Positions 4,891-56,006 of a stretch of 64,000 nt of DNA are shown here, in pieces (the first letter of the stretch is position 1; each line of letters opens with the position of its first letter). This stretch comes from Candidatus Babeliales bacterium (lineage in GTDB: Bacteria > Babelota > Babeliae > Babelales > JANWKD01): the NCBI GenBank assembly GCA_963701665.1, contig OY969622.1:480001-544000 (forward strand). The letters are read 5' to 3'. Under the pieces are notes generated by a model, which saw only the letters and a list, made by a program, of their open reading frames with translations, ran no database searches and was not told the origin of the DNA. The position numbers and the translations under genes are program-made.

Positions 4891-4989
4891 TGTCATTGCG
4901 AGCGCAAGCGTGGCAATCCAATTATAAAATTAGTTCCTTTAAGGATTAATTAAAGTTTGGATCCCCACGGCTAAAGCCTCGGGATGACA
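4891..4989. repeat. Family A palindromic REP-dimer/MITE, copy 1
   Basis: TGTCATTGCGAG..GTGGCAATCCA - AT spacer - TGGATCCCCACGG..CCTCGGGATGACA; degenerate outer arms extend to about 4837-5025. Confidence 0.9.
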
Positions 4990-6550: not shown

Positions 6551-6690
6551 TTAATGAGAATTCGATACAAACCGCACAACCAGCAAGAATGTCTTCCCGA
6601 GGCTTTAGCCGTGGGGATCCAGAATTTTAGTAAATTCCTTAAAGGAACTAATCTTATAAACTGGGTTGCCACGCTTCGCTCGCAATGACA
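6551..6690. repeat. Family A REP-dimer/MITE, copy 2 (retains left outer TIR)
   Basis: TTAATGAGAATTCGATA then GTCTTCCCGAGGCTTTAGCCGTGGGGATCC...GTTGCCACGCTTCGCTCGCAATGACA. Confidence 0.9.
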
Positions 6691-14216: not shown

Positions 14217-14373
14217 CGTCATCCCGAGGAACGAAGTGACGTGGGGATCCAGAATTTTAGTAAATTCCTTTAAAGGATTGATTTTACTATCTGGGTTCTA
14301 CTTCGTTAAAACTTCGTAGAACAGGTTGCCAACTCCTTCGAAGCTCGTAGAGCGAAGTAGGTTTGTAATGACA
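14217..14373. repeat. Family A REP-dimer, copy 3, with two nested mini-hairpins
   Basis: CGTCATCCCGAG..GTGGGGATCC left arm; right arm interrupted by CTACTTCG..CTTCGTAG and CTTCGAAG..CGAAGTAG. Confidence 0.88.
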
Positions 14374-18509: not shown

Positions 18510-18585
18510 GGGCGGTTAGCTCAGTTGGTAGAGCATCAGTCTTACAAACTGGGGGTCACTGGTTCGAGCCCAGTACCGCCCACCA
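18510..18585 (+). tRNA. tRNA-Val(TAC)
   Basis: Cloverleaf, loop CTTACAA, GGTTCGAG, encoded CCA. Confidence 0.97.
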
Positions 18586-18637
18586 GTCTTCGTTTATCCG
18601 GGCCTTCAGGCTCGGCAAACTACGCCTGGCTGCGCCA
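18586..18637 (+). repeat. Family C1 tRNA-trailer repeat
   Basis: GTCTTCGTTTATCCGGGCCTTCAGGCTCGGCAAACTACGCCTGGC..CGCCA directly after CCA. Confidence 0.9.
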
Positions 18638-18735
18638 TTTTCTTTAAATGAAAGTATGTATTAGAATTAGTACAACAAGGCCATGGGCAAGATCATATAA
18701 CTGGGTCATCAGTTATAAAGTAATTTGAAATTGAT

Positions 18736-18811
18736 TCCTCGGTAGCTCAGTTGGTAGAGCACACGACTGTTAATCGTTAGGTCGCTGGTTCGAGTCCAGC
18801 CCGAGGAGCCA
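18736..18811 (+). tRNA. tRNA-Asn(GTT)
   Basis: Cloverleaf, loop CTGTTAA, encoded CCA. Confidence 0.97.
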
Positions 18812-18895
18812 GTCTTCGTTTATCCGGGTCTTCAGGACTCGGCAAACTACGTCCTGACCGGCGTAGCTGAAAGCGAAGAGGGTCTGGCTTCGCCA
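18812..18895 (+). repeat. Family C1 tRNA-trailer repeat with nested insert (18857-18883)
   Basis: Same unit as 18586, with a compensatory stem change and an extra CGTAG..CGAAG hairpin. Confidence 0.88.
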
Positions 18896-18951
18896 TCTTC
18901 TTTAAGGATCAACTTATAAGAATTTGGTTTTTTCTTTTCTCCACTCTTGTT

Positions 18952-19028
18952 GGAGCTGTAGCTCAGCTGGTTAGAGCGTCCGCCTGTCACGCGGAAGGTC
19001 GTGGGTTCGAGTCCCATCAGCTCCGCCA
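18952..19028 (+). tRNA. tRNA-Asp(GTC)
   Basis: Cloverleaf, loop CTGTCAC, encoded CCA. Confidence 0.97.
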
Positions 19029-19300
19029 GTCTTCGTTTATCCGGGCCTTCAGGCTCGGCAAACTACGCCTGGCTTCGCCATTTAGGTGAACAAAATTTGA
19101 TACAAAAAACGAAGACTGCCCGGCAGAGCTTATACCAACGAAGAAGTTATTTTTTTCAAAGCAAATAGCGACGACGGGCTGGCACGGCCAGTTAAATGAC
19201 TTTAAATGTAAGTTAATTTTGATTGGCCAATGCGAAGACTGTCCGGCATAGCTTCACGAACGAAGCGAATGGTAATATTCAAGCAACAGCGGCGACGGAC
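19029..19300 (+). repeat. Family C1 unit (19029-19080) plus two C2 units (19107-19179, 19233-19300)
   Basis: C2 = CGAAGACTG(T/C)CCGGCA.AGCTT...AGCG.CGACGG(A/G)C; its start is the reverse complement of the C1 start. Confidence 0.88.
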
Positions 19301-48009: not shown

Positions 48010-48086
48010 GCGAAATATTTGTGTATTTTATGTAATCTTTTATGCTTAATAAAAGAATTATGTTTTTTAACAGCGAAAGTATTGCA

Positions 48087-48602
48087 ATGAAAACATCTCT
48101 TAAGAGTTTATGTCTTTTAATGATACTAAGTGCTGGGCTTCCTACACAGGCTAAGGCACATGATAATGCAGCGCCCATTGTTATTGGTGCAGCAGTTATA
48201 GGGGGTACCGCTGCGCTCTATGTTACGGGTCGTTGTAGCAGCGCATTGCTTTATGCAGTAGCAAAACGACGTTTTGAAGCTGAAATGGAACTTTTGCAAC
48301 GAATGGCGTTTAAAGAGAGTGTGCTTGAGGAAGAATTAGTTCCTTACATTCTTGATTGCCATGAAAAAACAAATCAATCATTCTTCTTTACTAATGGTTC
48401 CTATAAAAATTATCCACTATTGCGCTATAAAAAAGATCTTGATTTTTATATTAATTATCTTTGGTGCTTACAGCTTTTTCGCTTTGGCACCGAAACGAAG
48501 CGAGAAATTAGCACTTTCCTTGATAAATTAAAGATGATTCGTCGCTATATAATTACCGATTATCGGTTTATAAGAGAACAGCGACAGTTTGACGAGCGAT
48601 AA
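48087..48602 (+). CDS. Hypothetical secreted protein
   Basis: Signal peptide ..QAKA; YPL motif. Confidence 0.65.
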   Translation: MKTSLKSLCLLMILSAGLPTQAKAHDNAAPIVIGAAVIGGTAALYVTGRCSSALLYAVAKRRFEAEMELLQRMAFKESVLEEELVPYILDCHEKTNQSFFFTNGSYKNYPLLRYKKDLDFYINYLWCLQLFRFGTETKREISTFLDKLKMIRRYIITDYRFIREQRQFDER

Positions 48603-48606
48603 CAAT

Positions 48607-48642
48607 AAAAGAGGCATCGAGTTATCTCGATGCCTCTTTTTT
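48607..48642. terminator. Intrinsic terminator
   Basis: AAAAGAGGCATCGAG/CTCGATGCCTCTTTT. Confidence 0.8.
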
Positions 48643-48683
48643 GATGAACTATATATTCAACTTGATAAACTTGATGGCACAGT

Positions 48684-48784
48684 TGTCATTGCGAGCCCTT
48701 GTAAAGGGCGTGGCAACCCAGATAATAAAATTAATTCATTAAAGGAATTATTAAAGTTCTGGATCCCCACGTCGCTTCGCTCCT
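48684..48784. repeat. Family A REP-dimer, copy 8, split by IS110 (remainder at 49982-49993)
   Basis: ..GGATCCCCACGTCGCTTCGCTC-CT | IS | CT-CGGGATGACA reconstitutes an intact arm. Confidence 0.9.
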
Positions 48785-48864
48785 TGTATGTTAAAACAAA
48801 AAGCATTTAAGAGTAAATTGTGATAATTTAAGAATGAAATATTGTTTAATATCGGTTGTTTGAG

Positions 48865-49005
48865 AAAAGCTGATAGATCTCGTCACGCTCCTGGTTTAGA
48901 AGAACCGTTCCTGAGTTTGAGACTATCAGCTTACACAAAATTACCTCGAACAATCACTAGAGACGTATTAGGTATACGATCTCGTATGTTTACAAGGCTG
49001 AGGTA
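48865..49005 (+). ncRNA. Predicted bridge RNA core of IS110 #1 (target- and donor-binding loops)
   Basis: Stem AAGCTGATAG/CTATCAGCTT; LTG CACGCTCCT 48884-92; RTG TCCTGAG 48909-15; LDG ACAATCACT 48950-58; RDG TACAAG 48991-96; true 5' end unknown. Confidence 0.85.
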
Positions 49006-49008
49006 TTT

Positions 49009-49950
49009 ATGAAAAACATAGCAGAAGTATATGTAGGTGTCGATATTTCAAAAAATAATCTCGATATTTATGTGTATCCTATAGGAAAATTCTTTAAAGT
49101 AGCTAACTCAGAAGTTGGCATACAGAACATAATCAAGGAATTAGCTCACTATCAAGTTACACAAATTGCCTGTGAAGCAACAGGTGGCTATGAACAATTA
49201 CTTGCCCAATTACTCAAAAAGAACCGATATTCACTTTGGATCGTTGATCCACGAAGGATAAAAGCTTTTATTATAGCTACTGGCTGTAAAAGTAAAACCG
49301 ATAAAATTGATGCTAAAAAAATTGCTGAATTCGCTTCTAAAAATTCTCCTAGTTACGAGATTGTTAACAAAAGTGAGAATCAGCATAAACTACAAGCTCT
49401 AGTTAACCGTAAAAATGATTTAGTAAAATTTTTAGCTGCTGAGAAAACACGACTTAAACATCCTTCTCACGTATTATATGTTCCTGATATAAAAAGATTT
49501 ATTGCACTCTTAGAAAGTGAAATTAAATCAATTGAGTCTCGAATACAGGATTTAGTCAAAGATGATGAAGAGTTACATACAAAATCAAACATTTTGGAAT
49601 CAATCCCAGGAATCGGTAAAGCTACAGCTGCAACATTACTTTCTTTTGTCCCTGAGCTTGGGCAGTTAAGCGACAAAAAAATATCCGCTCTAATTGGTGT
49701 CTGTCCTTATGACAATGAAAGCGGCAATTACAAAGGCAAAAAATTTATTAAGCATGGCAGGCATATTCCTCGTAAAGCACTTTATATGTGTGCATTGACC
49801 ACGGTAAAGCACCATCTTCCTTTAAGGGAATTTTACCAGCGATTAATGGATGCTAAAAAACCTTTTAAAGTAGCTATCGTTGCTATTATGCATAAGCTCA
49901 TTATAATTGCCAATGCTCTATTAAAAAGGGGCGAGTTATGTAGAGCTTGA
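49009..49950 (+). CDS. IS110-family DEDD recombinase/transposase
   Basis: GVD, CEATG, KTDKID, IPGIG, ESG (catalytic Ser), ALYM. Confidence 0.95.
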   Translation: MKNIAEVYVGVDISKNNLDIYVYPIGKFFKVANSEVGIQNIIKELAHYQVTQIACEATGGYEQLLAQLLKKNRYSLWIVDPRRIKAFIIATGCKSKTDKIDAKKIAEFASKNSPSYEIVNKSENQHKLQALVNRKNDLVKFLAAEKTRLKHPSHVLYVPDIKRFIALLESEIKSIESRIQDLVKDDEELHTKSNILESIPGIGKATAATLLSFVPELGQLSDKKISALIGVCPYDNESGNYKGKKFIKHGRHIPRKALYMCALTTVKHHLPLREFYQRLMDAKKPFKVAIVAIMHKLIIIANALLKRGELCRA

Positions 49951-50030
49951 CTATAAAAATATTTGACTTTTAACACAATCACTCGGGATGACATTCTTTT
50001 TTTCGATGCCTTTTTTTAGATAGCAACTAT

Positions 50031-50414
50031 TTATTTGCGCAAAACTTGAACTAATTGAAATCTATTACCATCAGTGTCGGTAAAAGAAGCTAATTTAACT
50101 TCATTAGGGATTTCTTGAATGCCACCGAATTTTACGCCTTGAGCTTCTAACTCTTTTTTCTTTGCAAGAAGATCGTCAACTACCATGGTGACTACGGCAC
50201 TGCTGCCAGCTTTTCCTGTTCCTGTTTCTGGTCCTTTTTGTTCTTGGCAAATACCTAAAATCATACCGCCATCATGCCCAATAACTTCAAGCCAATTATA
50301 TTCTTTTGTATATTGCTTAACTTTTAAGCCGAGCACTTCGGTATAAAATTTTTTAGCTTTTTCCAAATCTGAAACGGTGATCCAGGAAAGTTCCATTTTT
50401 TTGATGCCGGACAT
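50031..50414 (-). CDS. VOC/glyoxalase family protein
   Basis: VSDLEKAKKFYTEVLG, VDDL, FTDTDGN. Confidence 0.9.
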   Translation of the reverse strand: MSGIKKMELSWITVSDLEKAKKFYTEVLGLKVKQYTKEYNWLEVIGHDGGMILGICQEQKGPETGTGKAGSSAVVTMVVDDLLAKKKELEAQGVKFGGIQEIPNEVKLASFTDTDGNRFQLVQVLRK

Positions 50415-52966: not shown

Positions 52967-53041
52967 GCCGAGGTAGCTCAGTGGTAGAGCATGTGCCTGA
53001 AGAGCACAGTGTCGGTGGTTCGATTCCGCTCCTCGGCACCA
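52967..53041 (+). tRNA. tRNA-Phe(GAA)
   Basis: Cloverleaf, stem TGTGC/GCACA, loop CTGAAGA, encoded CCA. Confidence 0.95.
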
Positions 53042-53247
53042 ATCTACGCCTTCATGGGGAAAAACTTCGATGTGTTATTTGGCTACGATTGGTTACGCCA
53101 GTCTTCGTTTATCCGCGCCTTCCGGCTCGGCAAACTACGCCTGGCTTCGCCCTGCATGAAGATTAACAATAATAAAAAACGAAGACTGTCCGGCATAGCT
53201 TCTTTAACGTAGAAATTGATATTCTCAAAACAAAAGCGACGACGGAC
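53042..53247 (+). repeat. Family C trailer array after tRNA-Phe (variant C1, canonical C1, C2)
   Basis: ATCTACGCC..GGCTACGATTGGTTACGCCA, then GTCTTCGTTTATCCG..CTACGCCTGGCTTCGCC, then CGAAGACTGTCCGGCATAGC..GCGACGACGGAC. Confidence 0.88.
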
Positions 53248-53416
53248 CATCTTTCGTTCATTTCCTCAATAGATCTTTCTACAATAAACCAGTATTTTTT
53301 TTTACTATACAAGTAAAAACATTTTGTTGAATTTGTATATTTTTTTTTAATACAATAATTGTTGCAGTATGATACGAAGAAATGGTGTTAAAATAAAAAA
53401 TTATTTAAGGAGCAAG

Positions 53417-54561: not shown

Positions 54562-54619
54562 CAAATACACATCTCCTTACTAAAATCTATTTTTTACCTT
54601 ACGCAGTTATGCGGCCCTA

Positions 54620-54757
54620 TGCGGGCAGCACCAATGTATTGCGTGCCCAATACATTGGATACAAGGGCACCAACATTCTGTTGGATCGAACTTCCCGCGC
54701 GAAATGCGCACTCAAAAACATTGATGCTGCGCATCATGATTTTGAGCTTGTCGCGCT
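54620..54757. repeat. Palindromic GC-richer element that is the target of IS110 #2
   Basis: CCAATGTATTG/CAATACATTGG and GCGCGA..CTCAAAA..TGATGC/GCATCA..TTTTGAG..TCGCGC hairpins, ending GCGCTAC once the IS is removed. Confidence 0.65.
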
Positions 54758-54831
54758 TGTATGTTAAAAAAAGAAATAGTTTCCATACCAGATCTGTATT
54801 TACTAAGTTTTTTAATGGAAGTGTTTGCTAA

Positions 54832-54970
54832 AAAAGCTGATAGATCTCGTTGTCGCGCTTGGCCCTGAGAGACCGCCCGGTAGTTTGAGACTATCAGCTT
54901 TCAAATAGATTATCTCGAACAATCACTAGAGACATAGTGATATGATCTCGAATGTTTACAAGCAAGAGGA
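54832..54970 (+). ncRNA. Predicted bridge RNA core of IS110 #2
   Basis: Same scaffold as #1; LTG TGTCGCGCT 54851-59 equals left flank 54749-57; RTG CCGGTAG 54877-83; LDG ACAATCACT 54919-27; RDG TACAAG 54957-62. Confidence 0.87.
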
Positions 54971-54974
54971 ATGT

Positions 54975-55922
54975 ATGAAAAACATAGCAAAAGTATATAT
55001 CGGTGTCGATATTTCAAAAGATGAACTTGATATTTCTGTGTATCCAACAGGAAAATCTTTTAAAATTCCAAATGATAAACCTGGGATAAAAAAAATTATC
55101 AGATTTCTTACTAAGCATGATGTTGCACAAATTGCCTGCGAAGCAACTGGCGGCTATGAAAAATTGCTTGCACAATTGCTACAAAAAAGCTCTTATCCTT
55201 TATGGATAGTGGATCCAAGAAGGATCAAAGGCTTTATCATTGCTAGTGGCTGTAGGAGTAAAACTGATAAAAATGATGCAAAGAAAATTGCTGAATTCGC
55301 TGCTAAGAATTCACCCGACTTTGAAGTAATCAACAAAAGTGAATATCACGATTCACTCGTAGCTTTGATTAATCGCAAAAATGATTTGATAAAATTTCGT
55401 GCATCCGAGAAAACCAGATTAAAACATCCTATACACATGTTGCATCATGCAAATATAGAAAAATTCATCAAAACATTAGAAAAGGAAATTAAATCAATTA
55501 CGTTACAAATACAAAGTCTTGTGCAACAGGATGAAGCTTTACATGCAAAGTCAAAAATTCTAGAAACTATCCCAGGTATTGGCGAATCTTCTGCCATACT
55601 CTTATTGTCGTTTGTTCCTGAACTCGGGCACATAAGTAATAGCAAAATATCAGCACTCATTGGCGTTTGTCCTTATGAAAATGAAAGTGGAAAATATAAG
55701 GGTAAAAAGTTTATTAGAGGCGGTAGAACGATTCCAAGGAAAGCTCTTTACATGTGTGCTTTGGCAACAATTAAATATTACCCACCTTTAAAAGCATTTT
55801 ACAATCGACTAATCACAGCTAAAAAACCTTTCAAAGTCGCTCTTGTTGCCGTAATGCATAAACTTATTATTATTGCTAATTCACTCTTAAGAAAAGGTGA
55901 AGTATGTGTAACTTTTAATTGA
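54975..55922 (+). CDS. IS110-family DEDD recombinase/transposase
   Basis: GVD, CEATG, KTDKND, IPGIG, ESG, ALYM; start set by alignment to #1 and GAGGA RBS. Confidence 0.95.
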   Translation: MKNIAKVYIGVDISKDELDISVYPTGKSFKIPNDKPGIKKIIRFLTKHDVAQIACEATGGYEKLLAQLLQKSSYPLWIVDPRRIKGFIIASGCRSKTDKNDAKKIAEFAAKNSPDFEVINKSEYHDSLVALINRKNDLIKFRASEKTRLKHPIHMLHHANIEKFIKTLEKEIKSITLQIQSLVQQDEALHAKSKILETIPGIGESSAILLLSFVPELGHISNSKISALIGVCPYENESGKYKGKKFIRGGRTIPRKALYMCALATIKYYPPLKAFYNRLITAKKPFKVALVAVMHKLIIIANSLLRKGEVCVTFN

Positions 55923-56006
55923 CTTTTAACACAATCACTACAGGACTTTAATAAATTCCTTAATGAGTAATTTTATATAGGAATTTTCGCATCAAAGAGT
56001 CTTTTA

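Follow-up and report, generated by a model that had tools for sequence, protein, structure and literature searches.

The genome of a Candidatus Babeliales bacterium (G000) carries three identical copies of an IS110-group element, IS110 #1, each at the same CT of a hairpin repeat arm (family A), and pairing between a predicted bridge RNA and the repeat very probably directs these insertions. One copy lies in the window, by which we mean the whole 64,000-nt stretch of contig OY969622.1 that was analysed. Judged from its sequence, IS110 #1 is an intact IS621-type IS110 element with a predicted bridge RNA, and it is a new example of the RNA-guided mechanism described in 2024; the mechanism itself was known. 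An earlier note on this DNA had proposed that the element is guided into the repeat family. This proposal is borne out by the position of all three copies, by the good guide match of their arms, which all rank 20th or better among 192, and by guides that covary with the flanks in related elements.

Structure of the element and its insertion site

The window copy of IS110 #1 occupies positions 48783..49983 (+), that is, 1201 nt with both CT cores or 1199 nt with one. The further identical copies are found at G000 198284-199484 (-) and G000 438959-440159 (+), referred to below as the 199 kb and 439 kb copies, and the genome additionally encodes one paralogue. A short CT core is present at both ends of all three copies. 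In the window, the left core is at 48783..48784 (+; junction ...TTCGCTC-CT-TGTATG) and the right core at 49982..49983 (+; junction ...ACAATCA-CT-CGGGATGAC).

The element interrupts one half of a head-to-head family A dimer. The left arm, of the GCAA type, is intact (48684..48718, +), and the right arm is split into a 5' part with the loop TTCGCTC (48761..48782, +) and a 3' part, CGGGATGACA (49984..49993, +). As the earlier note had described, a family A arm reappears when the IS and one CT are taken out, as can be read from both junctions; the empty site is scarless. The range 48684..49993 that the note gave for the IS proved to cover the complete dimer together with the IS, which itself is confined to 48783-49983. 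The restored arm is indeed similar to the empty family A arm at 14217..14249 (-; GTTC loop, three mismatches and one wobble to the guide), from which it differs by two substitutions in the loop region and by its tag (TGTC, versus CGTC at 14217).

The recombinase gene (49009..49950, +) encodes a protein of 313 aa, within the expected 300-460 aa, with the domains PF01548 (E 8.9e-22) and PF02371 (E 1.1e-17). The protein scored 202.5 bits against NCBIfam NF033542 (cut-off 140), and a PDB search retrieved IS621 (E 1.5e-35) and ISCro4 (E 3.3e-37). Based on motif position and alignment with ISCro4, residues D12, E56, D98, D101 and S238 stand where the DEDD residues and the catalytic serine are expected; the corresponding numbering reported for IS621 is D11/E60/D102/D105/S241 (PMC11208158).

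The left end (LE) of IS110 #1 comprises 224 nt and carries the guides, and the right end (RE) has 31 nt. The sequence also contains an 8-bp sub-terminal inverted repeat (48789..48796, partner 49968-49975, +). Unlike the 2-3 bp reported for the IS110 group, this length falls in the range of the IS1111 group (7-17 bp). The long right end with the guide RNA that marks the IS1111 group is absent, however: RE measures 31 nt, and it is the left end that carries the guides.

On either side of the insertion site lie genes that converge on it (48042-48602, +, and 50031-50414, -). A terminator-like hairpin flanked by A and T runs (48607-48643) is recognisable by eye in the gap that separates the upstream gene from the dimer. 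A search of the 64-kb window with Rfam at the gathering threshold returned four tRNAs and nothing else. At 18510-19131 and 52967-53252 of the window, tRNA genes are followed by a common GC-rich hairpin repeat. Four public sequencing runs yielded short fragments, none of which crosses either junction of IS110 #1, and neither an empty site nor a joint of the circular form turned up among them.

A predicted bridge RNA in the left end

The target and donor loops together span 48869-48997 in the left end. The predicted target-binding loop with its flanking stems (48869..48930, +) includes the left target guide (LTG) CACGCTCCT (48884..48892, +) and the right target guide (RTG) TTCCTGAG (48908..48915, +), the latter reading CT-CAGGA-A. 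Their combined read-out is CACGCTC-CT-CAGGA, just as the earlier note had derived it. Further downstream, the left donor guide ACAATCACT (48950..48958, +) corresponds to the right end of the element (49975-49983), and the right donor guide TACAAG (48991-96), the complement of the left end, forms one segment with the handshake base G48997 (48991..48997, +). The donor guides thus spell the joined ends of IS110 #1 itself with an exact match. Consistent with the handshake concept from the IS621 work (PMC11208158), G48997 is complementary to target position -1 (C).

Folding of the left end (z -2.53) recovered the stem of the target loop, yet the guides were also paired with each other. The left guide of IS110 #1 is one base off register relative to most relatives. 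In the segment 48883-48894, one base that lies between core and inner stem in most relatives is missing, and a bulged C would give the left guide a perfect match to TACGCTC-CT arms.

By analogy with IS621, IS110 #1 would circularise, and its joined ends would create a promoter, TTGACT-17 nt-TATGTT. The recombinase would then bind the bridge RNA produced in this way and recombine the circle into a repeat arm at CT. In the computed circle junction, the predicted -35 box TTGACT (49963..49968, +) precedes the predicted -10 box TATGTT (48787..48792, +) by 17 nt, a spacing that exists only in the circular form. The same layout across the circle junction has been described for IS621 (PMC11208160). 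The element would gain about 20 landing sites that are probably harmless because nearly all family A repeats are outside genes: ORFs of at least 100 aa contain 8 of the 192 arms, against a genome coverage of 86%.

Occupancy of family A arms in relation to the guide

Family A arms were collected with a loop-blind pattern, which yielded 211 candidates. After 16 had been removed by an AT-spacer filter and three as false hits, 192 were kept. This census replaced an earlier one with an energy filter, which had lost weak hairpins (89/183). Twelve of the 16 candidates taken out by the AT-spacer filter resemble nested family members, and none is occupied.

All three copies of IS110 #1 are inserted in the same CT register of family A arms. 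The occupied targets are TTCGCTC-CT-CGGGA for the window copy and TATGCTC-CT-CAGGA for the 199 kb and 439 kb copies. The guide matches the last two sites at 12 of 14 positions and the window site at 11 plus one wobble, with two left-guide mismatches at every occupied site. Within family A, the variant spelled by the target loop is GCTC-CT-C(A/G)GGA. Insertions are limited to the tenth of the arms that match best. With wobble weights of 0 and 0.5, the occupied arms all rank within the top 20 of 192 (P 0.00098), and with a weight of 1 within the top 25 (P 0.002), the sample being three insertions only, two of them within one dimer subfamily. Of the 192 arms, 115 are not of the GCAA type (right-type arms), 35 of these have a GCTC loop end, and all three insertions are found there (P 0.027). 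No copy in this genome was found at a site unrelated to family A arms or to the guide, which the earlier note had named as the finding that would speak against it.

Among the 133,838 CT sites of the genome, a perfect guide target is absent, and 29 sites match the guide at least as well as the worst occupied site. The check that the earlier note had proposed, whether occupancy follows guide complementarity genome-wide, turned out positive in so far as all insertions are in the top 20 of the 192 arms; within this class occupancy does not follow it, the three best-matching arms (one mismatch) being empty. Likewise, the arm at G000 974968 has the 14-nt target of the window site, yet it is empty. 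With no perfect target in the genome and the one-mismatch arms unoccupied, the guide would serve as a threshold rather than a ranking, with about two mismatches tolerated at the core-distal end. Guide-match ranking inside the good class was accordingly ruled out as a predictor of occupancy. For IS621, the natural target is one base off its guide, and screens revealed low mismatch tolerance (PMC11208160). An extended right guide (+6 = A) was also rejected, since it predicts AGAC-tailed arms and all three occupied arms are TGAC-tailed. TGAC-tailed arms account for 10 of the top 20, and the bias of the occupied arms is not significant.

The earlier note had further named elements whose CTAAAGC-loop arms should be poor targets. 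Such arms do exist in these elements: the one at 4960..4989 (+; core CT at 4978) is empty and has four mismatches and two wobbles, and similar arms have their core CT at 6600 (-) and 32573 (-). In the whole genome, 0 of 18 arms with the strict loop, which gives four mismatches plus wobbles, and 0 of 29 CTAAAGC-like arms are occupied. This agrees with the prediction without separately demonstrating it: avoidance is predicted by the guide, and three insertions cannot show it, given that a random choice of three arms would leave out every one of the 29 CTAAAGC-like arms with a probability of 0.61.

A paralogue with the same donor and another target

The paralogue, IS110 #2 (54756..55939, +), shares 69% amino acid identity with IS110 #1 and is inserted in a different repeat, family C, about 6 kb away. 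It has the same donor guides and donor loop and different target guides, so that the donor is common to the two neighbours and the repeats they aim at differ. The site of IS110 #2 is the best match in the genome to its own guide, and nine of the ten closest sites belong to family C. This repeat family is separate from family A, has a length of about 170 nt and occurs in about ten copies (window 54600-55960; G000 29880, 30221, 47618, 157033, 415641, 429417, 1261837 and 1310124), with IS110 #2 at its end. From the sequences, we infer that cross-mobilisation between the two elements may take place.

Guides covary with flanks in related elements

In a phylum sample of 261 genomes, 18 contained a match at E <= 1e-60, and a search with a scaffold pattern added 13 metagenome loci. 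The comparison set consisted of 22 elements with a shared scaffold, one locus each. L129 and L130 (duplicates of L016 and L017) and L123 (a near-duplicate of L124) were excluded, as were L004, L005, L018, L131-L137, L140, L141, L144 and L145, which have another scaffold.

The 22 elements have 22 different target loops. Left guides matched their own flanks at 129 of 180 positions (shuffle mean 91.5; 20 of 22 elements, core counted, best of three registers) and right guides at 87 of 100 (shuffle mean 44.4; 20 of 22 elements). The handshake base was complementary to target position -1 in 20 of 21 cases (shuffle mean 10.3). In 20,000 shuffles, no value as high as any of these three occurred, although the tests overstate significance because the relatives are kin. 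Poor pairs were the left guides of L016 and L121 (4/9 each), the right guide of L017 (2/5) and the handshake of L113. Most relatives, as judged by eye, are also inserted in GC-rich hairpin modules.

The transposase tree is a quick version in which IS110 #1, IS110 #2 and an element from the sister genome G001 form one group (SH-aLRT 90). As 9 of its 19 inner branches are open, guide switches were left uncounted. Two junctions showed peculiarities: the left junction of L125 has a short duplication of the left end of the IS, and in the right flank of L017 a stretch that lies upstream of the left end recurs, which suggests an IS-bounded tandem duplication.

The G001 element is the closest one in that genome (76% amino acid identity) and has a different guide and a different target module. 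Four of its five copies are located in one other hairpin module. The fifth, L012 (G001:C6:252517-256455), is in a coding sequence, where the right guide half alone is matched; by eye, we take this coding sequence to resemble an IS481-type integrase core. The exact guide-matched copies of the module found in G001 (L002, L010, L013 and L015) are all occupied. No empty exact copy was detected in this genome, and two copies with one mismatch are empty. Since all exact module copies are occupied, this suggests target saturation in G001. Family A-type arm ends number 92 in G001, of which just 2 are of the GCTC variant, versus 21 empty GCTC arms in G000. Insertion at a partial match, of which L012 may be a case, has been described for IS621 (10.64898/2026.08.31.748434).

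Alternative explanations

One alternative is that the repeat might be recognised directly by a protein, either the recombinase itself or one of the host, the match to the RNA loop being incidental; the imperfect guide match and the vacancy of the arms that match best speak in its favour. We find this hardly credible, because the guides and the remote handshake base change with the flanks across 22 elements, and the two paralogues, whose loops differ, have entered separate repeat families that fit their respective loops. A second reading retains guide pairing as a requirement and adds a structural gate formed by the arm hairpin, an idea put forward for ISPpu10 (10.64898/2026.03.19.712850). The location of all three sites in hairpin arms and the prevalence of GC-rich hairpin modules among the relatives' sites speak for such dual recognition, which we regard as possible but rather doubtful. 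Of the 29 equally good sites, 21 already belong to family A (20 listed arms and one nested variant); the chance of three out of three insertions in the family from sequence match alone is therefore considerable (P 0.36), there is no excess at n=3, and no structural gate is needed.

Another question concerns the number of targeting events. The 199 kb and 439 kb copies could derive from one insertion that was copied with its dimer through gene conversion or dimer spread, which would reduce the three insertions to two targeting events. The genome contains two TATGCTC-CT-CAGGA arms, both of them occupied, and their dimers are nearly identical. However, there are 3 differences in 90 nt between the dimers and none between the 1201-nt elements, which favours separate insertions, and the wider flanks of the two copies differ as well. 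A common origin thus appears improbable to us, and we favour three separate insertions directed by the bridge RNA.

Extending RNA-guided insertion to the whole clade, we tentatively consider that these IS110 elements might be specialist parasites of nuclease-linked hairpin repeats, which re-aim the left guide, the right guide and the handshake together at the common variant of their host. IS110 #1 and IS110 #2 might then be a natural pair with 'one donor, two guides', each bridge RNA being able to send the circle of either element into either family. We hold this to be rather less likely than its opposite; if true, guide evolution and cross-mobilisation would be directly testable within one natural genome.

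Relation to known IS110 systems

IS621 inserts into host REPs (PMC11208160). Similar to IS621 and ISCro4 (PDB 9t56), IS110 #1 combines PF01548 and PF02371 with a CT core and a long left end containing target and donor loops. It also shares with IS621 the predicted promoter layout at the circle junction, the handshake base, sites in host palindromic repeats and an imperfect guide match (as far as described in the available text of PMC11208160 and PMC11208158). In contrast to IS621, the protein is distant (phmmer E 1.5e-35), the donor and target sequences are others, and the target is a CGTC-tagged repeat in a Babeliales genome. Further IS110 elements at fixed REP positions are ISPpu9, ISPpu10, ISPa11 and ISRm19 (PMC1525189). 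Akin to ISPpu9 and ISPpu10, all copies of IS110 #1 occupy one repeat position, and the genome holds two REP-using IS110 elements. Unlike these two, which are reported to use the same REP position (PMC1525189), IS110 #1 and IS110 #2 share a donor and target two unrelated repeat families.

As the mechanism is already known, the value of the present case lies in the natural data set, which comprises 192 graded target variants, the three insertions and, in IS110 #2, a co-resident element whose donor is identical and whose guide differs. The 22 relatives add 22 natural guide-target pairs with handshake covariation. Such material allows mismatch rules, hairpin gating and cross-mobilisation to be tested on a compact recombinase of 313 aa that is distant from IS621. 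A narrow literature search returned no paper on natural guide reprogramming.

Family A repeats and small GIY-YIG genes

By sequence, family A resembles dimers of CGTC-tagged REPs that are connected with small GIY-YIG genes. Its arms consist of a terminal CGTC/TGTC tag, a hairpin and a CCA-like tail, and 138 of the 192 arms are contained in 69 inverted doublets with their tags pointing outward. The tag is part of the census pattern; the family was originally found by BLAST without it. A class of CGTC-tagged REPs including the families CGTC-1 to 4 has been described (PMC3733652), as has a repeat-ssnA-repeat layout for Ssn-related motifs (SRM/NTS; PMC11893778). In common with these, as presented in the available text of both sources, family A has the TGTC/CGTC tag, an AT first stem pair and a CCA-like tail, occurs mostly in head-to-head dimers and flanks small single-domain GIY-YIG genes (4/8). 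In contrast, its loops are longer and more varied, often exceeding 4-5 nt (versus CGTC-1 to 4, with an 8-9 bp stem), and the published degenerate SRM pattern matched none of the 192 arms. Genome-wide, this pattern had 1 match, versus 1, 1 and 3 in random genomes.

Four of eight small PF01541 (GIY-YIG) ORFs have a family A arm on each side. These Ssn-like genes are located at G000 166516-166863, 974631-974927, 955302-955595 and 261468-261761. Alignment of the window dimer with the two ends of one such cassette covered 100 of 111 nt, with a permissive gap. Given that arms flank GIY-YIG genes and that the dimer aligns to the cassette ends, family A dimers are likely gene-less derivatives of GIY-YIG cassettes. 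The other four small GIY-YIG genes (G000 350392-350634, 645313-645579, 499230-499571 and 224032-224274) are without family A arms and lie beside other GC-rich hairpin modules. One small GIY-YIG protein, searched against PDB and NCBIfam, had no match. The case ties bridge-RNA targeting to CGTC-tagged, GIY-YIG-associated repeats, a link that was not found in the literature searched; ISRm19 may be a precedent.

The earlier label 'REP/MITE' is apt for its first half, the dimers being REP-like and CGTC-tagged, and not for its second. Inspection of 68 doublets, the ends of which are approximate, revealed no flanking direct repeat of at least 2 nt in 59 cases, one of 2 nt in 5 and one of 3 nt in 4. 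A classical MITE was rejected on this lack of flanking target duplication, the dimer ends aligning to the GIY-YIG cassette instead. With the SRM pattern at 0 of 192 and no target duplication, family A was filed as neither SRM nor classical MITE. A Y1 (IS200-type) transposase was also considered as partner of the family. There were seven hits; arms were near two of the four loci examined, none of which was flanked on both sides, and the candidate was dropped in favour of the GIY-YIG link. Three identical Y1 (IS200-type) transposase genes are arranged in tandem, 566 nt apart, at G000 1253004-1254495, and two more identical copies are located at G000 79824 and 216174.
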